From: a virus
Lineage: Duplodnaviria > Heunggongvirae > Uroviricota > Caudoviricetes
IMG/VR virus record: IMGVR_UViG_2667527789_000013
Span: 1-31,026 of that record
Reading direction: 5' to 3' (one strand)
Length of the DNA stretch: 31,026 bases
Shown: piece by piece, positions 6,482-30,718 of the stretch
Layout of the letters: every line of letters starts with the position of its first letter
Position numbering within the stretch: the first letter of the stretch is position 1
The notes under the pieces: generated by a model
Told to the model about the DNA's origin: nothing
Databases searched by the model: none
Seen by the model: the letters and a program-made list of their open reading frames with translations, nothing else
Made by a program: the position numbers and the translations under genes

Positions 6482-6498
6482 ATTACCTTAAAGGTAAT
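6482..6498. promoter_or_regulatory. Operator-like palindrome ATTACC-TTAAA-GGTAAT (site B) overlapping putative promoter of the 5734..6462 gene
   Basis: Perfect half-sites; read on the minus strand this gives TTGATC-N16/17-TACCTT, with the -10-like element inside the palindrome, about 20-36 nt upstream of the ATG at 6462. Confidence 0.4.
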
Positions 6499-6574
6499 AT
6501 CTTGCTTTCAGGTGATCAAGCGTTAAACGTAACAAACCAAATGCGGTTGATTTTGATATCTCTCCGCGTTTATC

Positions 6575-6591
6575 ATTACCTTTGCGGTAAA
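6575..6591. promoter_or_regulatory. Operator-like palindrome ATTACC-TTTGC-GGTAAA (site C)
   Basis: Same half-site motif with one mismatch in the right half; lies just upstream of the structured RNA element and about 270 nt upstream of the Bro-N gene. Confidence 0.35.
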
Positions 6592-6625
6592 TTTACATCG
6601 CACTCCTCTTGTGCCATAGTAATCG

Positions 6626-6703
6626 GGCACTGGCAAAATCCAGTGCCGGGATTGGCGTCCCGAGTTACTAAGTGGCGCATACCACGCCAGACGTGGTTTT
6701 TTT
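6626..6703 (+). ncRNA. Candidate small structured RNA or transcription attenuator ending in an intrinsic terminator
   Basis: Perfect 8-bp stem GGCACTGG / CCAGTGCC with 6-nt loop (6626-6647), then terminator stem CCACG / CGTGG followed by seven T (6682-6703); no ORF with SD in this stretch; promoter not identified. Confidence 0.3.
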
Positions 6704-6859
6704 ATGCGTTAAGCACAGCTATATCCGAATTATGGTGGGCTGGGCAGGGGTCCGAAAGGACGCCGGTACCACTTAGGCCGGTACGCCAACCTTGTCCAGT
6801 TCACCACCAGTAATTGGCGTTGCGGTGGTGATTAAAATCACTAAGTGGAGATAACCACC

Positions 6860-8507: not shown

Positions 8508-9359
8508 TCACTGTGCAGTTTTCGCTGATCGATTTTCAGCTCTAAATTCAAGAACCGTTTCAATATTTCTTTCCTTCAGCATATCAATAACATTTTTATT
8601 CATTTGACTATCACTGGTTAATAACTGGTAAACGTTGCTTCTCTCTTTATCAGAGTTTTCTTTAACAGCTGCTTTGCATGCCAAATGCTTATTGAAATTT
8701 TCTACATCGCTAGTACAGGAATTTACGGCTGCTGATGAAATATCAGACGCTGAAGAAACACCATCATCCAAACGTTTTATAGCATTTTCTATACATGAGT
8801 TAAGGGAATAAACGACAACTGAGCGATACCCTTCAGACGCACACCATTCTAAATTTCTTGAAGGATCGAGTGGTTTTACTTCGCTGGATTGAATTAACTT
8901 GTCAAAAACTGACTTATATTCAATCTGTTTTTTATCTATAGCCCATACTTCAGTAGCTGATTTATAATTCCCCGTATGCCTATTAACATCAAATCCATGT
9001 TTTATAAGCAAATCTGCCCATGAAAGATTTATTGATTCATTGTTATGAGGCCATTTTCCTGTCAGAACCGCCCCCATAGACCCCATATGTCCGCCATATG
9101 ATGGTATAGCACCATGGCTCAGTAACTTCTCAGCAACCACAGGGCAATTAATTACATAAGAGGCGTAAAGCCCATTCCATAAAGCCCCTCTATAGTAATC
9201 GCCACGATTAGGTTCTTTTAAGTCGATAGCCTTTGATAATTGTTCACACGTTTTGCATGCATCAAAGTTATCCTTATTGCATTGCAATGAACTGGCAGCT
9301 GTAGGATTTACAGAGACTATTGAAAGCACTATGCCAAAAAACAAATTTATTTTTTTCAT
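8508..9359 (-). CDS. Secreted/periplasmic Cys-containing protein of unknown function (cargo; candidate lysogenic-conversion or exclusion factor)
   Basis: 283 aa; signal peptide MKKINLFFGIVLSIVSVNPTAAS; several Cys; visibly AT-rich relative to flanking structural genes; ATG 9359 lies 1 nt after the stop of the upstream ejection-protein gene. Confidence 0.6.
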   Translation of the reverse strand: MKKINLFFGIVLSIVSVNPTAASSLQCNKDNFDACKTCEQLSKAIDLKEPNRGDYYRGALWNGLYASYVINCPVVAEKLLSHGAIPSYGGHMGSMGAVLTGKWPHNNESINLSWADLLIKHGFDVNRHTGNYKSATEVWAIDKKQIEYKSVFDKLIQSSEVKPLDPSRNLEWCASEGYRSVVVYSLNSCIENAIKRLDDGVSSASDISSAAVNSCTSDVENFNKHLACKAAVKENSDKERSNVYQLLTSDSQMNKNVIDMLKERNIETVLEFRAENRSAKTAQ

Positions 9360-9360
9360 C

Positions 9361-12300
9361 CTATTTCATCTGCTCTTCAACTTTATTTAGTAATGGTGAT
9401 ATCGCCCACAGATTCTGAAAAGGTAGCATTTTACGGACAGCGTGGGTTTGCTGGCTGTCAAATTCTCCGTTAAGTACACCATTTGCAACCGTCGCGGCAT
9501 CACCGCCAAGATCAAAGGTAGGACCAAGTAAAGCACCAATAGCATTACGACTCTGAAACCTTGATACCGGAGGCGCACCAAACATCGCGCCAAGACCAAA
9601 CCTACCGCCGCTTATGTTCTCAACGGTATTCAGCGGCTCAGAGAGCCAGCCAAGCATTCCGCCCCGGTCGATCCCCTCTTTCACAAGGTTATTCCAGCTG
9701 TAATCGATATCGCGACCGCTTAACTTCTGTTTCATCATATAGACCATTGAGCCAAGCGCAATCGTGCCAAGCGCACCAAGATAGAATGCAGCATCGCCCT
9801 GCTGGATACCAGATACCAGCACCCTGTTATGCTGTGCGAAGATAAACGTTTTAAACTGCGTGATCATCTTCCAGCCTTCTTTACTAAAAAACAGCGGGGT
9901 ATCACCTACGCCAGGCGTTACAATCACTGAGTCTACATCTTTCAGCACTGCAGACTGGAAAATCTCTCTAGCGAAACGGTCATCCCACAGATGACTATGC
10001 CCGGTTAACAGCCCGTCCATATCCTCTCCGTGCTTCCCGAATTGCTCCCCGATTCGGCGCAGAACATCTTCATTGATGCCGACCTGTGCCATCTTCCGCA
10101 TTTCACTTTTGGAGAGCGTGCCACCAGCAGAAACTTGGCGAGCCGCGTCAAGTATCCTCGACTGCACTATCATCCCGGACCATGATTTAAGTGCGCTGTT
10201 CCACTGATTCATCAGCGTCCAGTTACCGAATTTCTGCGTCATCCAGTTCAGGCCTCGCTCAGCGGCGCTTCTCCGGCTATAGGGGTCAGTAAGATCCGCT
10301 ATAGCCTTTGTACGCGTAGACAGGACATAATCAAGCCCAACGGCCATTTCTCGCAAATCCCTGGTTGCAATCTTCACTGAGTACATATTTTTAAGCATGC
10401 TTACCATTGGTCCGAGAGATTTTCTCAGGCCATGCTGCATCATCGGTCGCATCAGATCAGTTGCAGCGGAGACGGTCATTCCACCAAGCAAACGGAGGAA
10501 GTTAATATTCCTAGCAACTCGCCCGGCACGAACAAAGAAACTGCGTGGATCTTGAGGTGCACCGTAAGTACCAAGCAGTCGATCACGCATAGCCGTAATA
10601 TCCCTAATATCAGCCTCCCGTTGCTTCTCAAGAACTGCACGTCGTTTAGGTGTTTTAGCCTCTTTTATTAGCCGGGTATATTCCTCACTAACCTGACGGA
10701 TTTGCTCCCCCATATCTTTACGGCCAAACTGCGCAGTCAGCTCAATTTCTGGTGCCACCTGCCGGAGATAACTTTCCATGATGTAGTTAACATCTGATTC
10801 AAGAAAATCTTCTATACGCTCATCAGGAATAAGCAGCGTTCTGCTTTTAGTGAAACCAGCCCGACCAACGAGTCTCTCTGGGATAATATCGGCTGGTACA
10901 AGCCCGGAAGGTGCGCCTATTATTTTATTCACGATCTCGTCAGCAGCGTCCTCTGCTTCCTCTCGGGATAGAGGCTCCATCTGCTTCAGTGCTCGTTCGC
11001 GGCTTGCATTCAGCCTTGTGGTTGAATTTGCCCGTTTTTGCAGTCGGCGAAGCTCAGAACGATATTTCCGTGGATTATCCAACAACTCCATATGGCGCTG
11101 ATAGACAGGAAGCTCACTCTTTGCCTGCGCTATATCATCAAGGCGTGTTTTAAGGTCAGAGCTTTCTTTCATCATTCTTGCCTGAAGTTTTTCTGATGAA
11201 GTCTCGGCCAACTCTTTTTCTATTCTTGTAAGACGCGCCTGTGTGTCAGTCTCCTGAGATATAAGCTTATTTCGTTTATCCAGTTCTTCCATGAGTAGAA
11301 TTTTTTTACCAGACCATTTCTCCGCTTCAGCGATTTCACTAGCGAGAGCATCAGCGCGCGGTGCCGATTCCTCTGCAGTTTTTAGCAATGAATTTATCCT
11401 TTCAATTCGCTGACCTGCTTTGTCAGCACCTTTGGCACTAATCCCTTGTATCCAGTTGGCAATTCGCCCTCTGAATTCAGTGCGGTCGGAAAGTATCTTA
11501 TCGAACTTATAAATGCGGGGAAGATAACTTTTCGCCGTCACGACATCGATATCCTTAGGAAGGATCCCCAGTTCCTGCATACGGGCTTTTGTGCTCTCGA
11601 AAATGGGGCGGATTCTGGCGGCTGCTTGTGAAACCTCAGGAATATCACTCTGATCACCACGGCGCATAGCCATGCCAACAGCTTCATTGAAATCAATAAA
11701 GTTCATCCTCTTCACGCCGCGGGCGCTAACAGATTTGCTGTACTGCTGGTAAGCATCACGAGTGGCTTCCATCTGCTTATAAAGCATGGCGTCGTATTGC
11801 TTAATCTTAGTCTCGACTGCCGTAAACGTAGCCAACCCCTCATCATTTTTGGCGAAGAAATAGTTATTTTCGGCAAGCTGCTGGTTAATCTGACGGGAGA
11901 CAAGAGATGGTGATTGCGCCAAGCGGCCAGCAGGAGTGACACTCAACGTTTTGTTAGCCAGTCCAAGTCCAGCGAGCTGTTCCTGATCGAGTGTGGTATT
12001 GAAAACCTGAGCTGCACCAATGCTTTGAGGAGAATCCATACCTCGCAAATGATTACCTACTGAGTTAACCACTGCCTCGCGCGCGCCAGGTCCAGCAAGT
12101 AGCTGTGCACCAGCACCAAGGATCCCACCAACGAGAGCATCAACAACAACATTCGATACGCTCTCCATCGGTGAGCGAGCTTCCTGAGTGGCCTGTAATG
12201 CGGCCTCTGAAGCAACACTGCCAGCAGCATTCGCCAGGGCAAAACGCCCGGCTGTTTCTGCAATACGACCGCCACGAACGACAGCGCCGAACGGAATAAA

Positions 12301-12750
12301 CATAGAAATCGCATTGAATGGATCTGCTAATCTCATTGCTACAGAAGAGACTGTACCAGCAAATCCCAAGCCTGAATTGTATTCCATGTCAGCTCTCTGC
12401 TGATCGATTCGATGTTTAATTGCCATTGTTTCTTCAGGCGAACCGGAGTTGATAAACGAATCTGCAAAATCTTCATAGCCTTTAATATCTGCTGCATCGT
12501 TATCAAATGGGTTATATCCTTCAACCCTGTCAAACTGACTGAAAGGAGCACTGGCAATAAAGCTACCCAGCGTGTTATCTATACGAAATGCTGCTTGTCT
12601 AGACCTTTGAACGCGTTGATCACTGGTAAATGGGTTCACAGCAGAAAGCAAAGAAGGTGTTTCCATATAGAAATTACTGTCATCAGGTGCTGCTATTTGC
12701 TGAATATCCTCGCCAAGCAACTCTTTAGGATCCTGTTCATATATCGGCAT
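9361..12750 (-). CDS. Internal virion/ejection protein (T7 gp16-like position), 1129 aa
   Basis: Large protein at the last position of the internal-core gene set; coiled-coil-rich middle; start overlaps stop of upstream gene; GGGGG SD. Confidence 0.6.
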   Translation of the reverse strand: MPIYEQDPKELLGEDIQQIAAPDDSNFYMETPSLLSAVNPFTSDQRVQRSRQAAFRIDNTLGSFIASAPFSQFDRVEGYNPFDNDAADIKGYEDFADSFINSGSPEETMAIKHRIDQQRADMEYNSGLGFAGTVSSVAMRLADPFNAISMFIPFGAVVRGGRIAETAGRFALANAAGSVASEAALQATQEARSPMESVSNVVVDALVGGILGAGAQLLAGPGAREAVVNSVGNHLRGMDSPQSIGAAQVFNTTLDQEQLAGLGLANKTLSVTPAGRLAQSPSLVSRQINQQLAENNYFFAKNDEGLATFTAVETKIKQYDAMLYKQMEATRDAYQQYSKSVSARGVKRMNFIDFNEAVGMAMRRGDQSDIPEVSQAAARIRPIFESTKARMQELGILPKDIDVVTAKSYLPRIYKFDKILSDRTEFRGRIANWIQGISAKGADKAGQRIERINSLLKTAEESAPRADALASEIAEAEKWSGKKILLMEELDKRNKLISQETDTQARLTRIEKELAETSSEKLQARMMKESSDLKTRLDDIAQAKSELPVYQRHMELLDNPRKYRSELRRLQKRANSTTRLNASRERALKQMEPLSREEAEDAADEIVNKIIGAPSGLVPADIIPERLVGRAGFTKSRTLLIPDERIEDFLESDVNYIMESYLRQVAPEIELTAQFGRKDMGEQIRQVSEEYTRLIKEAKTPKRRAVLEKQREADIRDITAMRDRLLGTYGAPQDPRSFFVRAGRVARNINFLRLLGGMTVSAATDLMRPMMQHGLRKSLGPMVSMLKNMYSVKIATRDLREMAVGLDYVLSTRTKAIADLTDPYSRRSAAERGLNWMTQKFGNWTLMNQWNSALKSWSGMIVQSRILDAARQVSAGGTLSKSEMRKMAQVGINEDVLRRIGEQFGKHGEDMDGLLTGHSHLWDDRFAREIFQSAVLKDVDSVIVTPGVGDTPLFFSKEGWKMITQFKTFIFAQHNRVLVSGIQQGDAAFYLGALGTIALGSMVYMMKQKLSGRDIDYSWNNLVKEGIDRGGMLGWLSEPLNTVENISGGRFGLGAMFGAPPVSRFQSRNAIGALLGPTFDLGGDAATVANGVLNGEFDSQQTHAVRKMLPFQNLWAISPLLNKVEEQMK

Positions 12751-15497
12751 TATTTGCCCCCTGCGTATATATTGCTCGGAAGGTAATTGGCTGAACCATA
12801 ACCGAATGGTTTGGTCAGATCTGGAGGAGTATATCCATCTTTATTGCTGAACTGCGGCAGCGGATTGCCTTCTCTCCGCACTCTAGCCTCATCAACACGC
12901 TGTTGCTGGAACTGAATGGTTTGCCTGTACATTGGAGATGTCAGCTGATCCGGCTTGAAACGAACAGGGAGACCATTTTCTCCAATATAATTTCTCGGTT
13001 CTATCGCTCTGTTTGCGTCAGGCTGTAAAACCATAACAGCATAACTCCTATCCCTTGCCGTAAGGCCATCAGAAACAAGTATTAAGTCCGTATCACTGCG
13101 AGGACCGCCAAAGGATTTTGATTTAAGCTCGCGTTTTTCCTGCTCCCACTGCCCCTGTATCCAGTTACCAGCACCATTATTTACTCCGTACAATGCCTCA
13201 GGTGCATACTTCATAACCTCTGCTTTGCCATTAACCGTAGAAACTCCCCAGGTGGTTCTGATCATGGCATTGGTCATTTTCTCAGCCTGTTCTGCATCGC
13301 CACCTGTCTGTACAAAGTTAGCATCGTAAATTGTCTGGTAATCTCGCTGATAGGCCGCATTTGATTTTCCTGGATCGGTAATATCCGGAGACCACGAACC
13401 AAAGGAAGTCAGACTGCTGGCGTTATTTTGTGCAGCAGTTGCCCTCGCCGCGACATATTTTTTGTCTCGCATGGCAGTGGAAAGCATCTGTTTCATTCGG
13501 TCATCCTGTTGGAACACCTGGCTGTAAGCCATATCAACAGCCTTATCCTCCGGCACGCCAGCGCGGGAATAATCGTAAACCTTGCCGTAAAATGCCATCG
13601 TACTTTTATCAAGTGTTGCCGCTGCCGCCGGATTATTATCGAATAACTGACCGTAGAATTTTGCCATCGGGACAACCAGCGCAGGATCTCTTGATGTTGC
13701 TCCACTGTTAAGCATTGTTTTAACCTGAGTTGGTATCATGCCGCTTTTAGTTGTGACGGTGACCAGTGTATTGATGCTCTGCGGATCAGATATGGAAAAC
13801 GAAGGCGCGATATCCTGCGCGAAATAACGGTCTACCGCTGCCTGATTGTTTTTGTCGTTCGGGTCCAGCGGGAAGTTATTTTGCATTGAAGACACGAACC
13901 TGTTTCTTCCCTGCTGAATCTCCCACTCCCTATTCATCTCTTTAAATTTGGCCTGCATTTTCTCCCAGCGTTGCTGGTTAGCTGCAAATCCAGGAGCGTT
14001 TGGATCCTGTGGACGTAAACGTTCAAGAATGTCTTGTCGTCCTTCTGGAGTGAGGTCTTTAGCGGCGCCAATGACACCTCCATATTGTATCTGCGCCTGC
14101 ATATCCTTCCACTTCATAGCGCCAATGCGCGGACCATTGGCCCGGATAAAATCGTCCTCAGAAGGTAACTTCTCAGGTTTCAATCCTTCATCAAGGGCTG
14201 AATATGCATCTTTAACTACGGTGCTAAGCTGGTCCGCATACTGCTGGCGGTACTGATTTCTCAGCTCATTAGCCTGCCTCAATGCCTGTATTTGCATTTG
14301 AGGGCTCATAGCATCAAATGCCGCATTGCCCGTATAACGCTTAGGTGAATCAAGGTTAGTTAGACCAAGGGCTGCCGAGATACCAGTTTCAAGCTGTTCG
14401 GTGCTATAAGGCATACTGCCATTTTCGTGTTTAATAATCCCAGCACATAAAGCAGCTAGTGTCTTTGGGTTAGAGATATCAAGCTGATCATTCTCCCCAA
14501 CACCAAGCTCACCACACAATGCCCTAATATAAGCATCAGTATTATTACCATCACTAGCCGGAGCATAGCGATTAACAATCTCGCTAACGGTGTCATAGCC
14601 TTGACGCTGGTAAGACAACATATTTTTACCCAACGCGCGGATTCCATGCTCAGGGGTAGCAAACGTTGCAAAACGTCCATCGCTACCGATCTGACCTTCC
14701 CACGGGTTAGATTTGCTCGCTTCAATATTACCAGGGTTATTATTACGTAAACCACGAGCATCCAATGAATTACCATGTGATATTGCACGACTCACACCAT
14801 CAAGATCCCCTGGCTCTCCATTAACCTGAAGAAACTCGTTGTATTTTTGAGCGATATTTCCTATCCATGCTTGCTGCCCCATTTGTTCCTTGAGCTGAGT
14901 TTTCTGCTGAACACGCCACTCATCAGGAAGCCCATGCGCATCAGCGTATTGATCAATAGATTCAAATCGCTGCTTGGCTAAATCGACAAATGCTTGGTTA
15001 TCGCTATATAGCCCCGCAGACTGAGTGACAGCCAATGCATTTCCTGACAAATACGTTTGATCTTGAAATTGCTGAAACTGCCCAACTTCATATCGACGTG
15101 CCTGATTGTAATAAGACTGCATAGACTGCTGGAGTTGAAAGGATAATTTATTCCTTTCCTCACTTTCAGGAATTGAGTCTAATAATGCCTGAGCCCTTTC
15201 CTGCATATTTTTCATAACAGCGTCACTCTGACCAAGAGCGTTTTTACCCTGTTTAGAAATCAGCCCATTTTCAGGGTTGTTAATCTGGTCATCTGCAAAT
15301 TGGTTAAATTGCAGTAACGCCTCCTCGGCCATAGCAACATTCGCTTTCTGCCTGGCTTCACCATATGCCACCGCATACTGATCTGCGACATTCGCCAGCA
15401 CCTGACCTGCTTGAGGAACATCGAAGGTCTGAAAACCACCGGTTTGCACACCACGACTTTGCACCTGGCGTCCGGATGTAGTAGGAACAACAGGCAT
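12750..15497 (-). CDS. Internal virion/ejection protein (T7 gp15-like position), 915 aa, with a possible peptidoglycan-hydrolase-like segment
   Basis: AGGAGG SD; position and size fit gp15-like; residues about 245-365 contain LRNNNPGNIEA...W.G...F.TF.TPEHGIRA...YAP, which I associate with virion-associated muralytic domains (unverified). Confidence 0.6.
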   Translation of the reverse strand: MPVVPTTSGRQVQSRGVQTGGFQTFDVPQAGQVLANVADQYAVAYGEARQKANVAMAEEALLQFNQFADDQINNPENGLISKQGKNALGQSDAVMKNMQERAQALLDSIPESEERNKLSFQLQQSMQSYYNQARRYEVGQFQQFQDQTYLSGNALAVTQSAGLYSDNQAFVDLAKQRFESIDQYADAHGLPDEWRVQQKTQLKEQMGQQAWIGNIAQKYNEFLQVNGEPGDLDGVSRAISHGNSLDARGLRNNNPGNIEASKSNPWEGQIGSDGRFATFATPEHGIRALGKNMLSYQRQGYDTVSEIVNRYAPASDGNNTDAYIRALCGELGVGENDQLDISNPKTLAALCAGIIKHENGSMPYSTEQLETGISAALGLTNLDSPKRYTGNAAFDAMSPQMQIQALRQANELRNQYRQQYADQLSTVVKDAYSALDEGLKPEKLPSEDDFIRANGPRIGAMKWKDMQAQIQYGGVIGAAKDLTPEGRQDILERLRPQDPNAPGFAANQQRWEKMQAKFKEMNREWEIQQGRNRFVSSMQNNFPLDPNDKNNQAAVDRYFAQDIAPSFSISDPQSINTLVTVTTKSGMIPTQVKTMLNSGATSRDPALVVPMAKFYGQLFDNNPAAAATLDKSTMAFYGKVYDYSRAGVPEDKAVDMAYSQVFQQDDRMKQMLSTAMRDKKYVAARATAAQNNASSLTSFGSWSPDITDPGKSNAAYQRDYQTIYDANFVQTGGDAEQAEKMTNAMIRTTWGVSTVNGKAEVMKYAPEALYGVNNGAGNWIQGQWEQEKRELKSKSFGGPRSDTDLILVSDGLTARDRSYAVMVLQPDANRAIEPRNYIGENGLPVRFKPDQLTSPMYRQTIQFQQQRVDEARVRREGNPLPQFSNKDGYTPPDLTKPFGYGSANYLPSNIYAGGK

Positions 15498-22805: not shown

Positions 22806-23102
22806 CTACCTCTGTTCACTGGCCTCTTTGGCCATCTTCAAATACTGTTCAGGGCAATGCGCCATAACGCGCTGAAACAGTTCCAGCGCCAGATTGCGTT
22901 GCCCCTCATTAAATGCCATTGCCATAGCGTCCATCGGTGAGATAGCGGAAAACACCCGGCCTTTCTCCAGCACCGACCAGACAACGCGACGCCCCTGTTC
23001 ACTGCTCATGACAAAGCGAATGTCATCAATTTCACGCTGTGCCATGTCACGTTGCTTACGGGCGTTTTCTTCTTTCAGTTGATCGTCTTCGTAATCTGTC
23101 AT
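22806..23102 (-). CDS. Hypothetical small protein (98 aa) downstream of portal
   Basis: ATGA-type overlap with the portal stop; charged helical protein of unknown function. Confidence 0.5.
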   Translation of the reverse strand: MTDYEDDQLKEENARKQRDMAQREIDDIRFVMSSEQGRRVVWSVLEKGRVFSAISPMDAMAMAFNEGQRNLALELFQRVMAHCPEQYLKMAKEASEQR

Positions 23103-24778
23103 TGTGATTTCCCACCCTGACCACTAACTGCATTCGCCATAGCTGACAAAACACTCGGATCCGAAGTTTTAGCTTCGCTTAGCGTCTTGGCACCCTGTGC
23201 CGCCGCCATCCCCATCGCCATCATTTGTTGCTGCTGTTGTTGCTGTGCCCGTTGCTGGCGAGCCTGCTCAACCTGTTCCTGCGGAACAATGACGGTTGGA
23301 GACACTCCGGACATATCAGCGAATGCATCGATCGCCTGATCAACGTTGAGTTTGTCGAGAGCTTCTGGTTTCGCTTGTGCAAGTTGACCAATGAAGTTGA
23401 CCGTGGATGCCAGACTGGACAGGCCGATAGACTTCTGCGCCTGAGCCATGACGGAAATGTATTCGACCTTCAGGGGCATACCTTCCATCGCGTCAGGCGG
23501 TGGCGGCAGCATGTTTTTACGCACCATCATCGAGAAAGCGCGGTCAATGAGAGGATTAAGACATTCGTCGTTCAGACGCTCAAGTACCGGCCCCAACATC
23601 AGAAGTTTTTCTTCTTTCATTTCGATCACCGCTTCAACAGGCATCGAGCGGGTATTGATGTTCTGCAACATCATGAACAGATCGACAAAGTAGGCGCTGT
23701 TAATGATTTGACGAGTGTCCTGAATGTCTGCCACCAAATCTGCTGTACTGGGGTTAACCAGATAAGCAGGCCTGAAGCCATCCTGACCAGTAATCTGATC
23801 GATATACGTGATGTCGCCAGGAAGAAGGGAGGCGCGCTGATTCTTGAGGGAAGTCGGAGCAACCATCGGCGGATTGGTGGCTTTATCAATCAACTGCGAC
23901 TTGCGCTTCTGGAGAAGCTGCAATGCCTTAACAGGTCCAAGCGCCAGCATACCCGGGCATGATGATCCATAAACATCTTCGCCGTTAACTTCCCAGCGCG
24001 GAGCCATAATTGGAAACTCATCAAATCCGGACTCACGCAACAACTTGTCGTTATCGCCACCAACCTCGTAATAAACCGATTTGAATGGCTTGTTCTTGCT
24101 ATCCAGCTTCGATGTATCGCGGTCAATGTTCGGGTAAACCGAATGCATCACTTCAATCCACTTCTCGTAGGTGCCGCTTTCCCACATGCTTTTTACGGAT
24201 TCGCTGACGTTATTTAGCCCGAACTCCTGAACAAGCTGACGAACAGTCATAGAGAACTTGCGAAAACAGGTGTCCACACTGCCACGAGGTGAGTTAGCCA
24301 GGTAGTAACTGCCTATCGGGAATGGCATTGTGCGAATGATGTCCTCGTCATCCTCCAGTACTGCCATTGCACCAGTGCTGTATGTGCCGAGGCTTCCGTA
24401 TAACTGCGGCAGCGACTGATAGAGATTCGACTTATTGAACATATCGTTCATGCGGTTCTGCACCGCCTCAAGCCACAACTTAACAGGACCATAATCCATC
24501 ATTTCAGGATCAGGCGTAGCCAGGCGAAACCACGGACGCGCGGGGCTTGTGATGCCAGACATCATGCCGCTGGCGAGAGTGCGCGCCGCCATAGTCCCGG
24601 TCGAATCAATAATGCGTGTATTGCGTCGATCGTTACTGTTGACCTCAGAAGTAAGAAAGCGGGAACCACGCGGGTTGATGTAATCACTCAACTCGCGCCA
24701 GTGCGGCTCGAACGACTGACGCTCGCTTTCAAGTTGTGCGAACTGTTTGTTCAATCGCTCTTTAGTTGTTTCCGCCAT
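23099..24778 (-). CDS. Portal (head-to-tail connector) protein
   Basis: 559 aa; position after terminase, size and Gln/Ala-rich C-terminal tail (QARQQRAQQQQQQQMMAMGMAAAQG) typical of T7-type portal proteins; GGAG SD. Confidence 0.75.
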   Translation of the reverse strand: MAETTKERLNKQFAQLESERQSFEPHWRELSDYINPRGSRFLTSEVNSNDRRNTRIIDSTGTMAARTLASGMMSGITSPARPWFRLATPDPEMMDYGPVKLWLEAVQNRMNDMFNKSNLYQSLPQLYGSLGTYSTGAMAVLEDDEDIIRTMPFPIGSYYLANSPRGSVDTCFRKFSMTVRQLVQEFGLNNVSESVKSMWESGTYEKWIEVMHSVYPNIDRDTSKLDSKNKPFKSVYYEVGGDNDKLLRESGFDEFPIMAPRWEVNGEDVYGSSCPGMLALGPVKALQLLQKRKSQLIDKATNPPMVAPTSLKNQRASLLPGDITYIDQITGQDGFRPAYLVNPSTADLVADIQDTRQIINSAYFVDLFMMLQNINTRSMPVEAVIEMKEEKLLMLGPVLERLNDECLNPLIDRAFSMMVRKNMLPPPPDAMEGMPLKVEYISVMAQAQKSIGLSSLASTVNFIGQLAQAKPEALDKLNVDQAIDAFADMSGVSPTVIVPQEQVEQARQQRAQQQQQQQMMAMGMAAAQGAKTLSEAKTSDPSVLSAMANAVSGQGGKSQ

Positions 24779-24792
24779 TTCAATGACTCCGG

Positions 24793-24999
24793 TTACTGAC
24801 CAAGCAGCGTTTTACCGCTGGTATTAGCGGTTGATGTGTCGCCCTGAGAACCGGTAAGCAGCGTAGAACTACGACCAGCAGCAGCGCGACGGCGACGTGT
24901 TTCTTCGTCGCGGGCATCAACAACGGCAGCATCCTGCTCCTGTGGTGCTGCCTGAACTTCTGGTGTTGCAGGCACTGATGGTGAGCTACCCATGCACAT
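24793..24999 (-). CDS. Small ORF (68 aa) immediately upstream of portal, uncertain
   Basis: ATG 24999 preceded by CGGAGTCATTGA, the same 12-nt translation-initiation context that precedes the portal ATG; low-complexity Ala/Arg/Thr-rich product. Confidence 0.3.
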   Translation of the reverse strand: MCMGSSPSVPATPEVQAAPQEQDAAVVDARDEETRRRRAAAGRSSTLLTGSQGDTSTANTSGKTLLGQ

Positions 25000-25067
25000 A
25001 TCAATGACTCCGTACGCAATTAAATTATTACCAATTTAACCACATATGATTTATTTATCGTAGATAG

Positions 25068-25096
25068 TTGACATTTAACGCACGAATTATTACCTT
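25068..25096 (+). promoter_or_regulatory. Sigma70-like promoter TTGACA-N17-TACCTT for the plus-strand tRNA/Gp49-like unit
   Basis: Perfect -35 TTGACA (25068-25073), 17-nt spacer, weak -10 TACCTT (25091-25096) lying inside operator site D. Confidence 0.35.
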
Positions 25097-25105
25097 TTAG
25101 GTAAG
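25089..25105. promoter_or_regulatory. Operator-like palindrome ATTACC-TTTTA-GGTAAG (site D)
   Basis: Same half-site motif as sites A-C, E, F; overlaps the -10-like element of the putative promoter. Confidence 0.4.
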
Positions 25106-25426
25106 CAAATGGTTCATTCCAGTTATTAACCTGACTGGCTTGTCGTTAAATTGAACAGGTGGAGTGAGCTTTTATTTTGAGCAGTACGGCGTATGGCACA
25201 TGCGCCGATAGCGGTCTGGATACGTTTAAGGGGCACCCTCCCTTGCTCGGGCAAACGAACCAGGTAGCCGGAATGTGCAAGTCGAGCGGTTTTATTCCGC
25301 GCACGGGGATTCACCATCCCGGCGATTCGGTGTGACGCCTCGGAAGAGACGAGGGTACAACGATGAGAGCATTTATGGAGCCGCGACAAAGTGTGGCGCC
25401 TTAACAGGCTAAGTGCTCTCAGCGTT

Positions 25427-25503
25427 GTGGCATTAGCTCAGCTGGACAGAGCAACCGCCTTCTAAGCGGTTGGTCGCAGGTTCGAATCCTGCATGCCACG
25501 CCA
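25427..25503 (+). tRNA. tRNA-Arg (anticodon TCT; reads AGA)
   Basis: 77 nt cloverleaf by hand: acceptor GTGGCAT/ATGCCAC, D-arm GCTC-AGCTGGACA-GAGC, anticodon stem ACCGC/GCGGT with loop CTTCTAA, variable TGGTC, T-arm GCAGG-TTCGAAT-CCTGC, discriminator G, encoded CCA. Differs from E. coli argU as I recall it in the acceptor and anticodon stems. Confidence 0.85.
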
Positions 25504-25546
25504 GAATCACGCCTAAGAACCGTGATGCCAGAAGTTCCAGTGGCTT

Positions 25547-25589
25547 GGCGGTGATGGTTTCCCTTGAAGGACTATCACCGCCCTTTTTA
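25547..25589 (+). terminator. Hairpin plus T-run downstream of the tRNA
   Basis: Stem GGCGGTGAT / ATCACCGCC (9 bp, 18-nt loop) followed by CTTTTTA. Confidence 0.4.
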
Positions 25590-25666
25590 CAGCAGGACGC
25601 CATTGCGATGACTTCATGCTGTAAACCCGTACAGCCACGGAAGGCATAACTCATTGCTTCCAGTTC

Positions 25667-25690
25667 GCCCGGTTCGCCGGGCATTTTTTT
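25667..25690 (+). terminator. Intrinsic terminator/attenuator immediately upstream of the Gp49-like SD
   Basis: Stem GCCCGG / CCGGGC with TTCG loop followed by seven T; the T-run ends 1 nt before the AAGGTGA SD of the ATG at 25702. Confidence 0.45.
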
Positions 25691-25701
25691 AAGGTGAGAT
25701 T

Positions 25702-26073
25702 ATGAACGACCAGCAAATCGAAAAAGAAATCGTTGAGAAAGGCAAAACGGCACCGCGCGTTACGCCAGACCATATCGAAGGCATTATTGCTCAGGAGGCA
25801 TATTTCACAGCAGAAGATGGTGCCTTTGGCAAAGCCATAAAAGCGAAACATACTGGCGGAGAGGTAAACTACCAGCCGCACGAATCACTTTCTCTGCTGA
25901 CGTTCTGCGTCCTGGTGCTGCGCAACGGCTTCACCGTCACCGGAGAGAGCGCCTGTGCAAGCCCGGAAAACTTTGATGCAGAAATTGGTCGGAAGATTGC
26001 CCGGCAGAATGCTGTAAACAAAATCTGGATGCTCGAAGGTTACTTGCTGAAGCAGAAGCTAAGCGAGCAATAA
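25702..26073 (+). CDS. Gp49-like phage protein (N4 gp49 / Sf6 gp66 family), cargo gene
   Basis: 123 aa; motifs TAPRVT, NGFTVTGESACASPENFDAEIGRKIARQNAVNKIWMLEGYLL match my recollection of this widespread prophage family; plus strand, opposite to the structural operon. Confidence 0.55.
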   Translation: MNDQQIEKEIVEKGKTAPRVTPDHIEGIIAQEAYFTAEDGAFGKAIKAKHTGGEVNYQPHESLSLLTFCVLVLRNGFTVTGESACASPENFDAEIGRKIARQNAVNKIWMLEGYLLKQKLSEQ

Positions 26074-26093
26074 CACCGTGACATGTCACAAAC

Positions 26094-26120
26094 AGCCAGC
26101 CGATGAGCTGGCTTTGTTTT
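26094..26120 (+). terminator. Rho-independent terminator after the Gp49-like gene
   Basis: Stem AGCCAGC / GCTGGCT with 6-nt loop followed by TTTGTTTT. Confidence 0.55.
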
Positions 26121-26163
26121 ATCCTCATCAGAGGATATCAACGACATTATCCCCACCAGCGGA

Positions 26164-27639
26164 TTAAGCATACGGGTCATAATCTGTGATGGCCTTGCCT
26201 TGCTGGTTCTGCTGCCCAGGAATTCGCAGACGCTTCGACACAGGGAACGCAAACGTCAGCAGTAGCGCATCGCCTTTACCCGGCGAACGCCCAAGACGCT
26301 CTTTGATATCTTCCTTCGGTTCGATAACGATTTTACCGTCCACACGAACTTTGTACTCTGCCGCCGACAGGTCGTCTGCTGTTTCCTGGTCATCCAGTAT
26401 GCCGCCCAGCCTCAGCCATGTCTTGCATGAATTGAACATCTCCCCACGCTTGTTGAGCATCTGCGGGTCAGTAGACGCGCCACCGAACGGAACAAGTTGC
26501 CATGTACGACCCCATCCGTCACCGATTGACTTCAGACCGGTTCCGTAACCGAAGTCGATGAACACCGCGTCAGCCTGGTACTGGTCTTCAAAGTCAGCGA
26601 TACGCTTCGCCATAATCAGATCGTCTGTGGTCTTGTTACCAGTCCATAGCACCTTACTGTGCAGCCCCTGCCGCAGGTATATCACCGCGTCATCAACGCC
26701 TGAGTATGCCGGGTCAACGCCGATTATCACCGGAGCATGTGCAACCTGCGCAGCGGTTACCACCCGTTTCATTGCCTCATCAGTAAGACCGGTAGGGATA
26801 AACTGCAATTCAGATGCATCAGGGAATATGCCGCGCACACGGATTTTAACGAAGTCGCTGTCTTCCCCGTAGTCATCAACCCATTTCTGCAACTGCTGTT
26901 TGTTAGTGCCTTCCACCGTCCGGCTGTCAATCTGCGCACACTTCCAGCGGTGTTTGTACTTGCGGAAACATTCACGGAAACGCCCGGTGTTACGCGTCGG
27001 GTTCCCGAACGCCACCCAGATGATTTCGGTGTCTTCGTCCGTCAGCGCACCCTCTGCTACCTCCCACACCAGATCGGCAATGTTCGACGCTTCATCGAAT
27101 ACCACGATGATGCGTTTGCGCTCGTTGTGTAGTCCGGCGAATGCCTCAGTGTTGTGCTCAGACCAGGGGATTGCGTCAGCTCGCCACCGCTTGTCGTGCC
27201 CAGGATCATTGCTGTACATCGCGGTAGCGGTACAGGTAAACCAGTCTTTCGTGATAGCAAGGTTCGACCACTTGATAATTTCCGGCCAGGTCTTCGTTCG
27301 TAGCTGGTTGTCGGTGTTGGCGGTCACCACGACCTTACAATCCTCGCAAGTGGACATGCCCCAGTTGATCAGCATTGAGATGAATGCGGATTTACCAATA
27401 CCGTGACCAGAAGCGCGTGCCAGCATAAGCGGCTGATAGCGCGTCTCTGGATTCTGCAGGTGATCACGTATCTCTCGGAACGCATCAGCCTGCCACTGAC
27501 GTGGACCGGTGGCATGTGCCAGTTCAGTCCCCTCTTCCCCCCACGGGAACGCATAGAGGGCATAACCAAGCGGATCGTGAGTGAACCCTGCAATATCCTC
27601 GATTAACTGCTCTTCAGGAGATAACGCTGTATCTGTCAC
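26164..27639 (-). CDS. Terminase large subunit
   Basis: 491 aa; Walker A-like ASGHGIGKS near the N-terminus, acidic nuclease-type C-terminal half; directly follows the small-subunit gene with ATGA overlap. Confidence 0.8.
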   Translation of the reverse strand: MTDTALSPEEQLIEDIAGFTHDPLGYALYAFPWGEEGTELAHATGPRQWQADAFREIRDHLQNPETRYQPLMLARASGHGIGKSAFISMLINWGMSTCEDCKVVVTANTDNQLRTKTWPEIIKWSNLAITKDWFTCTATAMYSNDPGHDKRWRADAIPWSEHNTEAFAGLHNERKRIIVVFDEASNIADLVWEVAEGALTDEDTEIIWVAFGNPTRNTGRFRECFRKYKHRWKCAQIDSRTVEGTNKQQLQKWVDDYGEDSDFVKIRVRGIFPDASELQFIPTGLTDEAMKRVVTAAQVAHAPVIIGVDPAYSGVDDAVIYLRQGLHSKVLWTGNKTTDDLIMAKRIADFEDQYQADAVFIDFGYGTGLKSIGDGWGRTWQLVPFGGASTDPQMLNKRGEMFNSCKTWLRLGGILDDQETADDLSAAEYKVRVDGKIVIEPKEDIKERLGRSPGKGDALLLTFAFPVSKRLRIPGQQNQQGKAITDYDPYA

Positions 27640-28232
27640 TGATTACCATCCTGACGTTCTTTGAGTCGCTTCCTGGCTGCTGCTATGCGATCAGCAATTG
27701 TCACATTCACATTAACATCCAGATGTTCTTTGAACGCGTTGACATCAACATGCTTACCAATCAGCTCAAGGTTCTTCACCTTGTCAGGCCATTTAATTTT
27801 TTTGAGGATTGTCTCTATCGAATCCTCGTTCATGTTCATGATGGTCGATGACAGATCAAAGCCACTAAGCGTAGTGCGCCAGATTTTCGGCCACTCACGG
27901 ATTGGTTTAAGGCTCCCATCGTCGTTGAGGATGTCGATCACGTCCATCTGATCGATCTCCACCAGGCGCATGAGAACGTAATCAACACTGACGCGCATTC
28001 GTTTGTTGCGCTCCTCCATCAACTCGGCAATCCGTTTTTGAATACGTTCATCGCGCATCATTACACTGGCTTTAACTGCCGCTGTATTTGGGGAGAATCC
28101 TGCGTTAATCGCTGCCTGAGTCTGGTTTTCAGGCGTTTGGATGTATGACTGGCAATAAGCCTCCTGCATTGCTGTTAGTGGCTTAAATTGCGTTGATTTG
28201 CGTTTATAGGTTTTAGGTTCAGCAGGCATCAT
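27636..28232 (-). CDS. Terminase small subunit
   Basis: About 198 aa from ATG 28232 (MMPAEPKTYKRK...) with GGTGG SD; track ORF 27636..28310 starts at TTG and runs through an upstream terminator hairpin; basic N-terminal region and position upstream of TerL. Confidence 0.55.
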   Translation of the reverse strand: MMPAEPKTYKRKSTQFKPLTAMQEAYCQSYIQTPENQTQAAINAGFSPNTAAVKASVMMRDERIQKRIAELMEERNKRMRVSVDYVLMRLVEIDQMDVIDILNDDGSLKPIREWPKIWRTTLSGFDLSSTIMNMNEDSIETILKKIKWPDKVKNLELIGKHVDVNAFKEHLDVNVNVTIADRIAAARKRLKERQDGNQ

Positions 28233-28249
28233 AACCACCGTGGTAATTG

Positions 28250-28265
28250 TTACCGTTTTGGTAAT
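28250..28265. promoter_or_regulatory. Operator-like palindrome (G)TTACC-GTTTT-GGTAAT (site E) with an extra GGTAAT half-site at 28242-28247
   Basis: On the minus strand reads TACTAT-TACC-AAAAC-GGTAAC-A-ATTACC just before the TerS SD; the same TACTATTACC-N5-GGTAA arrangement occurs at site F. Confidence 0.4.
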
Positions 28266-28536: not shown

Positions 28537-28875
28537 TCACACTATTAATTTCGTTTCATGCCAGCCTTTAGTCACCCAGCATTGCGAGTCACCATTACAC
28601 GGGCATGAATTAACTGGAACTCTCTCGCCGCACTTACCGCAACGTTTTCTGCTGATCGATTTTATACGCCCGCGCACGCGTGCATCATCCTGGCGGATCA
28701 GTAACGCTATATACTCACCAAATTCGTAAGGCGCACGCCCGGGGCGACGCGTGGCACAGTTACGCTCCAGCATTTCAATTTCCTGAGCATCAAGCACAAT
28801 CTCCAGCTTACGCACACCAGATGCAGCTTGTCTGGCTCTCTGAGCGGCTTTGCGCTCTGCTGCTGATTTAGCCAT
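28537..28875 (-). CDS. Hypothetical protein with basic N-terminus and C-terminal Cys cluster (zinc-ribbon-like)
   Basis: ATG 28875 (MAKSAAERKAAQRARQ...); C-terminal RCGKCGERVPVNSCPCNGDSQCW; track ORF starts one codon upstream at TTG. Confidence 0.5.
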   Translation of the reverse strand: MAKSAAERKAAQRARQAASGVRKLEIVLDAQEIEMLERNCATRRPGRAPYEFGEYIALLIRQDDARVRGRIKSISRKRCGKCGERVPVNSCPCNGDSQCWVTKGWHETKLIV

Positions 28876-29149
28876 CAATATTTACCTTTATCGCGTACAC
28901 CTTTACCGGTTTATCGCCGAAGTGGGGATGTGTGATTGTTTTCACTTCATATCCTCCATACGGAACATCAATTCTGCGGCTGGAGTCGTCGCGCTTCGGA
29001 TATCCCTTTGTGATAATCAGGCGGTCATACTTACGGTTAACGAGGCGCTTATTCCAGTAGTCATTACACAGGCGATACTCTTCCGTTTTCTCCCCGCGAA
29101 TCATGGCATCGAAGTATTCACCTTTAACGGCAAGTTGCAGGTTAGCCAT
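28868..29149 (-). CDS. ASCH-domain-like protein
   Basis: MANLQLAVKGEYFDAMIRGEKTEEYR fits the ASCH/PUA-like N-terminal pattern (K.eyFdai..GeKt.E.R); ATG 29149 has strong GGAGGTGA SD and TAATG overlap with the upstream stop (alternative ATG at 29170). Confidence 0.5.
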   Translation of the reverse strand: MANLQLAVKGEYFDAMIRGEKTEEYRLCNDYWNKRLVNRKYDRLIITKGYPKRDDSSRRIDVPYGGYEVKTITHPHFGDKPVKVYAIKVNIDG

Positions 29150-29409: not shown

Positions 29410-30020
29410 TTCGCCTCCTGCGGCGGTTCTGGTAGCGGCATCCAGAACAAGGCGTTCCCTAACCACGATAAAGTGCCGTCGCTCAACTCCACGTATTCCC
29501 CTTGTACCTGTCCTGCCATATACTCGCCATGCTTTGAATAAATTAAAATCCAATCATCTTGAGGGGGCATTCGCTCACTACAGCTTATCCAACCATCCGG
29601 AGTTACCGGAGAGTTGCCATCCAGCGCGTTCAACTTGTAAGCCTGGCTTACAGGTTCGGCACTATGAAGCATGGCTGCGCGGCAGGCGTTCCAGCCTGTA
29701 GCGTATGCAGCCGCTTTGCTGCTGCCTTCAACTGGCGCATCCTGCCAATACATTTCTTCCGGCACAACCGGCGCAGGTGAGTCAGCATAAACAGGAATAA
29801 CGTCCGGTTGCTCTTTATTGCTTTCATCCGTTAAAGCCCAGAATAATTTCCCGGCCGGATGTTTGAAAATATAAGCAACTGGTTCTGCTTCCAGCGATGC
29901 CAGAGCAATTCGTGCCAGTTCTTCCGCTTCTTCTGCTGGCAGTACAACGTTGCTACCCGGTCCGTATGTTTCGCGCCACTGCTTGATTGTCAGCAGTCGC
30001 TCTTTGGTAATAGTGGTCAT
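29406..30020 (-). CDS. DUF551-like phage protein
   Basis: 204 aa; C-terminus ...ALFWMPLPEPPQEAK matches the characteristic WMPLPEPP ending of DUF551 proteins; ATGA overlap with the upstream gene. Confidence 0.5.
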   Translation of the reverse strand: MTTITKERLLTIKQWRETYGPGSNVVLPAEEAEELARIALASLEAEPVAYIFKHPAGKLFWALTDESNKEQPDVIPVYADSPAPVVPEEMYWQDAPVEGSSKAAAYATGWNACRAAMLHSAEPVSQAYKLNALDGNSPVTPDGWISCSERMPPQDDWILIYSKHGEYMAGQVQGEYVELSDGTLSWLGNALFWMPLPEPPQEAK

Positions 30021-30532
30021 GCCGCGTTTCCTTCTTTCTTATTAACAATTACACCGTCATATATTTCATTAAGGTGCCCTCTCAACTCCATGCGCCTTAA
30101 TGCAGATAACATGTAATCGCATTCAACCTGCTTATTCCCAATAAAAGGTTTATCTTCAGGGTTACCCCAACAGCAATTCCCCTTGGGCCAACCATGTACT
30201 TTCCGTACTCTTCCGTTAACAACGTGAAGTAATCCCCAGCCAGGTGGTAAATCCTCAATTGAAATAATTCCCGGCTCACTAATAAAGAATCGCCAGTCGC
30301 CCATTCCAAGAGACGGATTTTTACGAAAACGCTTTTTTCTATCTGCCAACAAGTCAGCACGAGAACACTTCGCCTCTATCAGGCATGATGCTGAATTTCT
30401 GAATCCCATAGCATCTGGCTGTTCTCCGGTACTGGTTACAGCTATAAAGCGGTCATGAAAACAAACCTTGAACCCGTTGCGCTTAAGGAACTTGTACGCA
30501 ATCTGACAGAGTTCGCGGTGTGTTAACGCCAT
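30017..30532 (-). CDS. Hypothetical protein with PD-(D/E)xK-like motif (possible nuclease)
   Basis: ATG 30532 (MALTHRELCQ...) with AAGGAG SD (track start 30583 is GTG); segment PDAMGF...CLIEAKCSRADL resembles a D...E.K nuclease core; unverified. Confidence 0.45.
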   Translation of the reverse strand: MALTHRELCQIAYKFLKRNGFKVCFHDRFIAVTSTGEQPDAMGFRNSASCLIEAKCSRADLLADRKKRFRKNPSLGMGDWRFFISEPGIISIEDLPPGWGLLHVVNGRVRKVHGWPKGNCCWGNPEDKPFIGNKQVECDYMLSALRRMELRGHLNEIYDGVIVNKKEGNAA

Positions 30533-30718
30533 ATCACTCTCCTTTAGTGCGCAAGTGGTTTTTCCTGCGGTTTTGCGCTGCACTGGGCTTTTTGCAACAA
30601 CTGTGACCCATCACCCCTAAAAACCCCGTCAACCTCAACCGTCTGTTACTAATCCTCACCCATCGCCAGACCCCAACACCGTTTCTGCGAGCTAACAGAA
30701 TTTTTGCTTTACGGTTTT

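Follow-up and report, generated by a model that had tools for sequence, protein, structure and literature searches.

A conserved double-pseudoknot RNA in a probable repressor-controlled early RNA operon of an epsilon15/phiV10-like prophage

The stretch analysed here, called the window, comprises all 31,026 nucleotides of the IMG/VR virus record IMGVR_UViG_2667527789_000013 (Caudoviricetes), and the subject is a plus-strand unit at about 25020-26130, lying between the portal and large terminase (terL) genes. Its central element is a structured RNA of ~165 nt (the core), the fold of which, with five helices and two pseudoknots, is strongly supported by covariation. Judged by Rfam 15 and by such literature as could be searched, the core belongs to an undescribed RNA family. 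The region as a whole is read, with somewhat better than even confidence, as a repressor-controlled early "RNA operon" of an epsilon15/phiV10-like prophage, whose transcript would be processed and would carry one anti-defence cargo gene at its end. By comparison with known systems, the unit appears to be a variant of the dicBF-like early operon that carries a phage tRNA and a member of a known sponge family.

An earlier note, made from the sequence alone, had listed a promoter with operator, a tRNA, two hairpin/T-run elements, a Gp49-like gene and a terminator, and all of these are present, with coordinates within 1-2 nt. The ~330 nt that it took for a GC-rich, hairpin-rich leader instead contain the conserved RNA family described here.

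Fold of the core RNA

Compared with shuffled sequence, the stretch 25100-25700 has a far more stable fold (z = -5.4, 0/20 shuffles). Within it the covariance model of the core (R1) finds a single copy in the window. The two pseudoknots are formed between the P1 loop (GCAC) and GUGC, and between the P4 loop (CACC) and GGUG. The fold was drawn by hand (P1, P2, P4, P5 and both pseudoknots) and evaluated on a MAFFT alignment of 36 representatives, each less than 93% identical to the others. In this set 97.7% of the cells are paired, in comparison with 28-39% when the partners are slid by 1-3 columns. Compensatory double changes occur in 11 pairs (76 cells), and none of 500 shuffles reaches the observed values. 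G-U pairs are frequent, which assigns the RNA to the plus strand.

With Rfam 15, searched at the gathering thresholds and at E<=10, the tRNA alone matches in the region, apart from sub-threshold noise, and no match to the core is obtained in the window, the sub-window, six related loci or P1. Full-text literature searches (the 19-mer of the core and other strings, the phiV10 tRNA, the prophage small RNAs AgvB/AsxR and Pas, and structured phage RNAs) gave no description of the core in the part of the relevant literature that could be reached.

Distribution of the core RNA

The sequence at 25186-25430 is ~83% identical to unannotated DNA of lambdoid phages (cdtI, mEp460, Ayreon, 2H10 and Stx2c phages); to P1, P7 and further phages of the P1 type its identity is ~80%, over 165 nt. 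The invariant 19-mer was searched for in contigs of one genome per species and in IMG/VR contigs. It has exact matches in 24 species genomes. Of these, 22 are genuine hits in Enterobacterales (Escherichia, Citrobacter, Klebsiella, Enterobacter, Kosakonia, Phytobacter, Kluyvera, Buttiauxella, 'Ca. Erwinia dacicola' and others), one is a chance match and one is a contig that was probably mis-binned. At least 120 IMG/VR contigs also contain it. These loci were collapsed to 51 representatives, each below 93% mutual identity. A search keyed on another conserved block recovered the same loci plus only five with one substitution in the 19-mer (one of which changes a U-G pair to U-A), and therefore the invariance of the 19-mer is not an artefact of the way the loci were collected. 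According to blastn, the core is present in 1840 of 5426 complete E. coli genomes, about a third, and never lies beneath an annotated feature there.

The commonest setting is a lambdoid prophage of the SfV/mEp460 type with the order cI, terminator, promoter resembling the left operator and promoter (OL/PL) with TTGC-N7-GCAA operators, RNA, terminator-like hairpin and yfdP-yfdQ-yfdR. In mEp460-type prophages the RNA begins ~35 nt after the predicted PL start, and the yfdPQR-type lambdoid phages that carry the core lack N. In P1 and P7 the core is located 14 nt downstream of trnI, just before ban, within the C1-controlled ban operon. The orientation of the core is always that of local transcription. 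In epsilon15, R1 finds only a 77-nt deletion remnant.

Several details of the core loops and of existing annotations may be recorded here. The epsilon15 remnant (locus L002 in our numbering of the relatives, 3525-3601) is a deletion derivative, in which a common loop motif, TTCCCTTGATGCT, joins P1 and the 5' half of P2 to the T1 hairpin (see below), of which the 3' half is left. The CU-rich motif UCC(C)UUG occurs in the P2 apical loop (25225-25235) and in the T1 loop (25558-25570), its equivalent in DicF being ACUCC, and the P4 loop, GAUUCACCAUCC, resembles the 3' end of 16S rRNA; these loops may act as anti-Shine-Dalgarno-like seeds. Open reading frames (ORFs) that are probably spurious have been called over the RNA at 25433-25684 of the window (minus strand, phiV10p04, antisense to the tRNA and the tail), in mEp460 (mEp460_037/036, L004 2443-2996) and in Ayreon (0037, L006 2561-2680).

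Promoter, operator and genomic context

The -10 hexamer of the early promoter has three of six consensus matches, which is the reason why a stock promoter scan missed it; transcription is predicted to start at ~25103. The operator motif, TTACCN5GGTAA, has seven matches in the window against 0.55 expected by chance, and the counterpart of the promoter-proximal site is annotated in the epsilon15 GenBank record as 'repressor, lysogeny', that is, as a repressor binding site. The plus-strand promoter with a perfect TTGACA and an operator at its -10, as proposed in the earlier note, is thus in place. A minus-strand promoter beneath the operator was considered and rejected, having only a weak match (8/12, 25074-25046) that the operator does not overlap.

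An identical TTGACA-17-TACCTT promoter precedes the RNA in 12 representative relatives, and 29 of 52 representatives have a strong promoter-like site, often TTGACA-17-TACCTT with the operator, at 6-114 nt upstream of P1. Because of these upstream promoters and the lambdoid, P1 and epsilon15-like settings, the core is a regular component of repressor-controlled early transcripts, its setting being an early operon throughout.

Repressor control in the prophage has two further aspects. Two operator matches lie directly upstream of terS (28232-28264), the listed TTG start of which, at 28310, is probably too far upstream, and epsilon15 likewise has a repressor site before terS; therefore the prophage repressor may act directly on the promoter of the packaging/structural operon. 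At 6483-6811, downstream of operators at 6483 and 6576, an isrK-like RNA (6627-6703, 67 bits) is followed by a C4 antisense RNA (6728-6811, 66 bits), which is the arrangement of P1/P7 immI-type antirepressor control in an epsilon15-like prophage. The isrK and C4 pair is also found in mEp460 (L004 206-394).

The sequence 24780-26170 is 99.9% identical to a prophage of E. coli STEC1585 and 96% identical to phage phiV10 (Uetakevirus, epsilon15-like). The gene order, with portal and gp3 leading away on one side, the RNA and optional cargo in the opposite direction and terL convergent on the other side, is kept in 16 diverged epsilon15-like loci. By this comparison the whole unit, first supposed to be inserted between normally adjacent genes, is not a recent insertion. 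Since a tRNA stands next to the core only in phages of the phiV10 and P1 types, it is the tRNA that is the insert, and its host a pre-existing, older RNA gene. In the epsilon15 GenBank record (Kropinski), the annotations near the homologous locus are a repressor site, an integration host factor (IHF) site, a site marked 'RNaseIII' and, directly ahead of the Gp49-like gene, a terminator. The features of the window locus are collected in Table 1.

Table 1. Features of the locus between the portal and terL genes (window coordinates)
Feature	Position	Strand	Basis
Portal gene	23099-24778	-	PF12236, E 4e-187
gp3 homologue, 68 aa	24793-24999	-	
Early promoter: -35 TTGACA 25068-25073, 17-nt spacer, -10 TACCTT 25091-25096	25068-25096	+	
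Repressor operator TTACCTTTTAGGTAA, palindrome overlapping the -10	25090-25104	.	TTACCN5GGTAA match and epsilon15 annotation
P0 long hairpin, GGUUCAUUCC pairing with GGAGUGAGCU, includes GUCGUUAAAU; putative RNase III site	25111-25172	+	Fold; aligns with Qin dicBF hairpin and epsilon15 'RNaseIII' site
Core structured RNA, ~165 nt, five helices, two pseudoknots	25183-25361	+	Covariance model R1, 146.6 bits, E 1e-42
Core P1	25187-25207	+	
Core P2	around 25212-25275	+	
Invariant 19-mer GGUAGCCGGAAUGUGCAAG (DNA form GGTAGCCGGAATGTGCAAG)	25263-25281	+	
Core P3		+	
Core P4	25306-25320	+	
Core P5	25338-25354	+	
P6 long hairpin (CAACGAUGAGAGCAUU ... AGUGCUCUCAGCGUUG), variable tip, P0 module type	25358-25427	+	Fold; arm covariation
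tRNA-Arg(UCU), encoded CCA	25427-25503	+	ARAGORN; Rfam tRNA 71.7 bits (gathering 29)
Hairpin Ha, AAUCACG...CGUGAU, conserved 3' of the domain slot	25505-25527	+	
DicF-like small-RNA module: single-stranded GUUCCAGUGGCUUGGCGG, T1 hairpin 25547-25582, then CUUUUU	25534-25588	+	Terminator scan; K-12 DicF alignment; stem covariation
H3, UUUACAGCAG pairing with CUGCUGUAAA, takes in half of the T1 U-tract	25586-25625	+	
H4	25639-25661	+	
T2 intrinsic terminator, GCCCGG-UUCG-CCGGGC (hairpin 25667-25682), then A and seven U (ATTTTTTT), ending at 25690	25667-25690	+	
Shine-Dalgarno AAGGUGAG; AAGGTGAG begins at 25691, abutting T2	25691-25698	+	
Cargo gene, Acb4-family predicted cyclic-dinucleotide sponge, 123 aa	25702-26073	+	PF13876 Phage_gp49_66, E 8.6e-35, 119.5 bits (gathering 27)
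Bidirectional terminator (hairpin 26094-26113) common to acb4 (+) and terL (-)	26090-26119	.	Annotated terminator in phiV10
terL	26164-27639	-	

Flanking hairpins, tail modules and homology with dicBF

The core is bracketed by the long hairpins P0 and P6. The arms of P6 covary (23 distinct variants), and its last base is at the same time the first base of the tRNA. In the E. coli K-12 prophage Qin, the dicBF region between ydfC and dicB consists of a P0/P6-type hairpin with GUCGUUAAAU...GUGCGCUUCC-GGUUGUGG, a domain of the lambdoid type (domain 3) and then DicF, the single-stranded 5' part and terminator of which align with 25534-25588 of the window. DicF has been described as cut from a polycistronic transcript, with RNase III generating the 5' end in the case of a 190-nt form, and RNase E giving a form of 53 nt. 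Counting 190 nt back from the DicF 3' end leads to the 3' strand of the Qin P0/P6-type hairpin. Because the end made by RNase III falls in the homologous hairpin, and the 'RNaseIII' annotation in epsilon15 agrees, P0 and P6 are, by analogy, most simply interpreted as RNase III processing sites.

Qin dicBF and the window share a repressor-controlled promoter of the early-left type heading a polycistronic transcript, a long hairpin with GUCGUUAAAU...GUGCGCUU (cleaved by RNase III in Qin, from which alone the processing is known), a 'GUGG' domain, and a small RNA that ends in the UUGGCGG...CCGCCCUUUUU terminator and is followed by a protein gene read through that terminator. They differ in that Qin has neither the core RNA nor a tRNA, the T1 module of the window fails the Rfam DicF model, and the window cargo is a predicted sponge against the cyclic-oligonucleotide-based antiphage signalling system (CBASS) and not DicB. 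Judging from these alignments, the shuffled RNA modules of phages make up a family that extends well beyond DicF, which is one such module.

Downstream of the domain slot the tail keeps a conserved order: the AAUCACG...CGUGAU hairpin, T1, H3, H4, T2 and the Shine-Dalgarno sequence. The two tandem hairpin/T-run elements of the earlier note correspond to T1 and T2; both exist, but as parts of conserved small-RNA-like modules. In the alignment, T1 is homologous to the DicF terminator by position as well as by sequence. T1 and T2 show the GC hairpin, U-run and covarying stem of intrinsic terminators (the T2 stem as GG/CC, AC/GU and GC/GC), with T1 ambiguous in that half of its U-run pairs into H3. 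An antiterminator pairing that would compete with T1 was sought and none was found. The same note held that a terminator abutting a Shine-Dalgarno sequence implies conditional read-through. The juxtaposition is real and conserved, but no regulator or alternative pairing that would make it conditional was found. As the juxtaposition is kept in relatives with different downstream genes, it can be fairly inferred that the cargo is expressed by read-through of T2.

The modules are permuted in P1, where domain 3 and H4/T2 are in the Pban leader, the P6 3' strand with the GGCUGA hairpin follows trnT and the core precedes ban, while in epsilon15 P2 is fused to T1. The modules are thus lost, gained and permuted independently, which favours an array of distinct RNA units over one giant fold.

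A number of observations on the tail modules stand on their own. The P1 Pban leader ('dicF-like region'; L007 195-360) is the domain-3 and H4/T2 module of this RNA family, and at ~1280-1330 of the same locus the plus-strand module of the P6 3' strand and GGCUGA hairpin overlaps the minus-strand ORFs plp and upl, which are possibly miscalled. The GGCUGA hairpin itself is small, with an invariant loop and a covarying 5-bp stem (GCGCA/UGCGC, GCCCA/UGGGC, GGCGG/CCGCC), and follows GUUGUGGUGAAU in many members (L004 2745-2765; L014, L017, L025, L026, L029, L039, L048, L081; L167 2458-2485); it is also found 3' of DicF in Qin. HK639 putL contains GGGGCUGACGG. In the H4/T2 module, CAUUGCUUCCAGU (25649-25661) is identical over 13 nt to the seed region of RyhB and kept in most tails, with an Rfam RyhB score of only 18.1 bits against 55; it may belong to a RyhB-mimicking phage small RNA or be a coincidence. 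For targeting of ftsZ, RNAduplex of the tail modules against the ftsZ ribosome-binding region was uninformative, with DicF itself reaching only p = 0.08.

The tRNA-Arg(UCU) and codon usage

The tRNA proposed in the earlier note is recognised by both tRNA searches (ARAGORN reports Arg tct); its CCA end is encoded, and it has the orientation of the promoter. In all full-length members of the family, P6 is followed by a domain closed by GUUGUGG...CCACAAC. In the window the tRNA fills the GUGG...CCAC domain slot exactly (GUUGUGGCAU...AUGCCACGCCA), where relatives have a non-tRNA domain. Arg-UCU lies downstream of the core in the phiV10 type, and Ile-CAU upstream of it in the P1 type; only these two types have a tRNA adjacent to the core, always co-oriented with it, and tRNA adjacency was accordingly rejected as a rule of the RNA family.

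AGA accounts for 65 of 9368 codons (6.9 per 1000), while E. coli K-12 uses ~2 per 1000. There is none in the capsid, portal, terminase and acb4 genes; AGA is concentrated mostly in low-GC genes (3127-6462, 8508-15497, 28537-28878 and 30017-30583). The idea that the AGA decoder compensates for the codon usage of AT-rich genes agrees with this enrichment, as all 65 codons lie outside the genes just named as free of AGA, and the pattern is consistent with the tRNA acting as a codon supply. A role against tRNA-targeting defences is also possible.

Other temperate phages likewise carry tRNAs for rare codons along with accessory genes rich in the codon (argU-like tRNA-Arg UCU; P1 trnA/T/I; Stx-phage ileZ-argN-argO). 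The window tRNA differs from them by being embedded in a conserved RNA array, in which it replaces a non-tRNA domain with the same GUGG/CCAC closing helix. The GOLLD and ROOL RNAs are also large, multi-pseudoknotted RNAs of phages and prophages beside tRNAs; GOLLD sometimes carries a tRNA in a linker, and the array of the window carries tRNA-Arg between its 5' and 3' parts. The region has no Rfam match to either GOLLD or ROOL, and GOLLD shows neither sequence nor model similarity to the array; the modules of the array shuffle separately, and its hosts are Enterobacterales.

The Acb4-family gene and the cargo slot

The label 'Gp49-like' given earlier to the cargo gene names the right family, as the PF13876 match attests, but is incomplete, since PF13876 is now equated with the Acb4 family, whose founding member, SPO1 Acb4, blocks CBASS as a sponge for cyclic dinucleotides. 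In the Acb4 study, eight of eight tested homologues bound 3'3'-cGAMP. The window protein passes the gathering threshold of the family and matches the crystal structure of SPO1 Acb4 (9e4w) over 41 residues (E 0.006 with the single sequence, 1.8e-4 with a profile of relatives), which is weak but specific. It differs from Acb4 in a 65-residue N-terminal extension relative to the matched stretch. The protein is thus predicted to be an anti-CBASS cyclic-dinucleotide sponge.

The gene occupies a position that is filled differently in relatives. Behind T2, Tad2-like sponge genes (PF11195) are found in a Klebsiella phage and in a P1-like element, and elsewhere the slot holds a gene of an 'MKTVDML...' family or one for an HNH protein or for membrane proteins. 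No cargo is present in L127 and L029, which have only the RNA between the promoter and T2; in L127 the RNA ends at T2 and only the convergent terL follows. The junction of T2 and AAGGUGA is conserved before several different cargo genes, whereas the acb4 genes of lambdoid phages stand by themselves, their homology setting in at the start codon. The terminator abutting the Shine-Dalgarno sequence thus marks a conserved cargo slot of variable content. The cargo ORFs of L015, L036, L085 and L098 form a protein family without a Pfam match (N-terminus MKTVDMLAKYL..., C-terminus ...NATNIAEAINAGFDAI), which is a candidate for a new anti-defence gene.

Proposed expression of the RNA operon

Upon derepression or infection, transcription would start at ~25103 and yield, in order, P0, the ~165-nt core, P6, tRNA-Arg(UCU), the DicF-like module with its end at T1 and another small-RNA-like module that extends to T2. 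Cleavage of P0 and P6 by RNase III, in analogy to Qin dicBF, would excise the core as a discrete RNA, while RNase P and 3' trimming would release the tRNA, which could then decode AGA in AGA-rich, low-GC phage genes. T1 and T2 would form the 3' ends of small RNAs and stop most transcripts. The minor fraction reading through T2 would be translated from the conserved Shine-Dalgarno sequence, giving an Acb4-type sponge that sequesters the cyclic dinucleotides of CBASS.

Of this scheme, the analysis demonstrates the sequence features, the conservation of the fold, the homology of the modules and their shuffling among phages, and the variability of the cargo slot. Some points weigh against it. It depends on steps that we infer, namely the transcription start, the processing by RNases III, P and E, the leakiness of T1 and T2, and the roles of the tRNA and of Acb4. 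T1 may be a structural helix and not a terminator. The Rfam DicF model (RF00039) gives no match at E<=10 in 24950-26200 or 25500-25700, and so the name DicF-like reflects alignment and position; in the relative L127 the model reaches 24.5 bits against a threshold of 48. Most of the core and the whole tRNA slot are missing from epsilon15, and neither is thus essential for that phage. In lambdoid prophages the RNA is in the PL leader, ahead of all early-left genes and with a terminator-like hairpin behind, for which a role in cis would fit at least as well as one in trans.

Possible functions of the core RNA

The chance that the core is a stable trans-acting RNA that binds a conserved host component is judged close to even. 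This is suggested by the RNase III-type hairpins or tRNA that bracket it, by its occurrence alone with a promoter and a terminator in L127, by its mid-operon position in P1, and by the independent shuffling of the modules, which in P1 marks them as independent RNA units. That the core is a cis-acting modifier of RNA polymerase, with put-like antitermination, seems rather unlikely, and that it is a sensor of a ligand, improbable. On a broader view, it is tentatively proposed that the double-pseudoknot core with its invariant GGUAGCCGGAAUGUGCAAG represents a new functional class of phage early RNA engaging a conserved host machine, either RNA polymerase or a component of host immunity.

The leading alternative, which is nevertheless unlikely, is that the core acts in cis as a processive antiterminator, a larger analogue or relative of put, folding on the nascent early transcript and binding RNA polymerase, which would then read through T1, T2 and downstream terminators; expression of the cargo gene in the window, and of the entire early-left operon in the N-less lambdoid phages, would depend on it. 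The put RNAs of HK022 and HK639 are, like the core, structured RNAs encoded in cis right after an early promoter of N-less lambdoid phages. Such a role fits the start of the RNA within 6-114 nt of a strong, operator-controlled promoter in 29 of 52 representatives (in the mEp460 type, ~35 nt past the PL start), the terminator-like hairpins behind the RNA in the window and in lambdoid contexts, and the invariant 19-mer, expected for a conserved protein partner. For the yfdPQR-type lambdoid phages, which lack N, the passage of early terminators has been left unexplained, and a put-like mechanism has been suggested. An N-like protein was looked for there and rejected, as the first PL gene (yfdP-like) has no arginine-rich motif and no Pfam match. 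The P1 helix also shares ACGGCG...CAUGCGUCG with put stem I, with the same 5-bp stem and a U equivalent to the essential U28, which is a lead only: the shared 9-mer is expected ~0.04 times by chance, gapped local alignment is no better than with shuffles (z ~1), blastn-short is negative, and with a 9-mer and a 6-mer as all that is shared, homology with put is not established. R1 finds nothing in the HK022 PL/PR region or the HK639 genome, and there is no covariance-model similarity. The architecture is different as well, with put having ~70-126 nt, two stems and copies in both operons (putL and putR), and the core having ~165 nt, five helices, two pseudoknots and one copy per phage, none being found in the right (PR) operon. 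The core also occurs in P1, 2.3 kb from the promoter, and in podoviruses; the L127 RNA ends at T2 with only the convergent terL beyond, and the RNase III-type hairpins flanking the core suggest excision.

The model of the earlier note, a tRNA-plus-moron cassette between terL and portal with an incidental GC-rich spacer and conditional read-through, is largely refuted and now has very little probability. It was built on features that are real (tRNA, gene, terminators and AGA enrichment), and the homology of solitary acb4 genes in lambdoid phages begins at the start codon, as for a mobile cassette. It is contradicted by the conservation of slot and RNA in epsilon15-like phages that have diverged, whether or not they possess a tRNA and cargo, by the strong structural selection on a 'spacer' that is common to P1 and lambdoid phages, and by the missing regulator or alternative pairing for conditional read-through.

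Equally doubtful is a sensor, that is, a riboswitch-like aptamer or a small-molecule sponge (e.g. for an immune cyclic nucleotide) that tunes the early operon or sequesters the signal. The size, pseudoknots and invariant junction nucleotides of the core are typical of aptamers, its neighbours are often nucleotide-sponge genes (Acb4, Tad2-like), and terminators follow downstream; against this, no riboswitch family matches, a tRNA and 200-300 nt separate the core from the nearest terminator, no terminator/antiterminator pairing of a mutually exclusive kind is seen, and the gene context is non-metabolic.

That the stretch is conserved as a DNA-level element (a recombination, packaging or replication site) or a small-protein gene, as the ORFs annotated over it in some records (phiV10p04, mEp460_037, Ayreon 0037) and a stop-free minus-strand frame in 26 of 36 cores might suggest, is most improbable, because the compensatory changes and strand-specific G-U pairs fit an RNA, the annotated ORFs disagree in strand and frame while the RNA always follows local transcription, and the spacings of the invariant blocks fall evenly into the three residue classes modulo 3 (12/12/12 and 15/12/9), which excludes a conserved reading frame.

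Implications

A strongly constrained RNA is thus found in phage P1, among the lambdoid and epsilon15-like phages and in about one third of the complete E. coli genomes; it is unannotated throughout, absent from Rfam 15 and overlain by probably spurious ORFs. Its position at the 5' end of the early-left transcript of N-less prophages makes it a concrete candidate for the passage of early terminators. If the proposed engagement of a host machine is true, the core would, in the RNA polymerase version, be the N-independent antiterminator that is missing so far in the very common lambdoid prophages of the yfdPQR type and, in the immunity version, an RNA-based counter-defence factor beside protein sponges. 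The locus appears to be an exchange hot spot for anti-defence sponge genes (Acb4, Tad2-like) and raises the possibility of RNA-based counter-defence, and the terminator-Shine-Dalgarno junction may be used as a landmark for new counter-defence genes.

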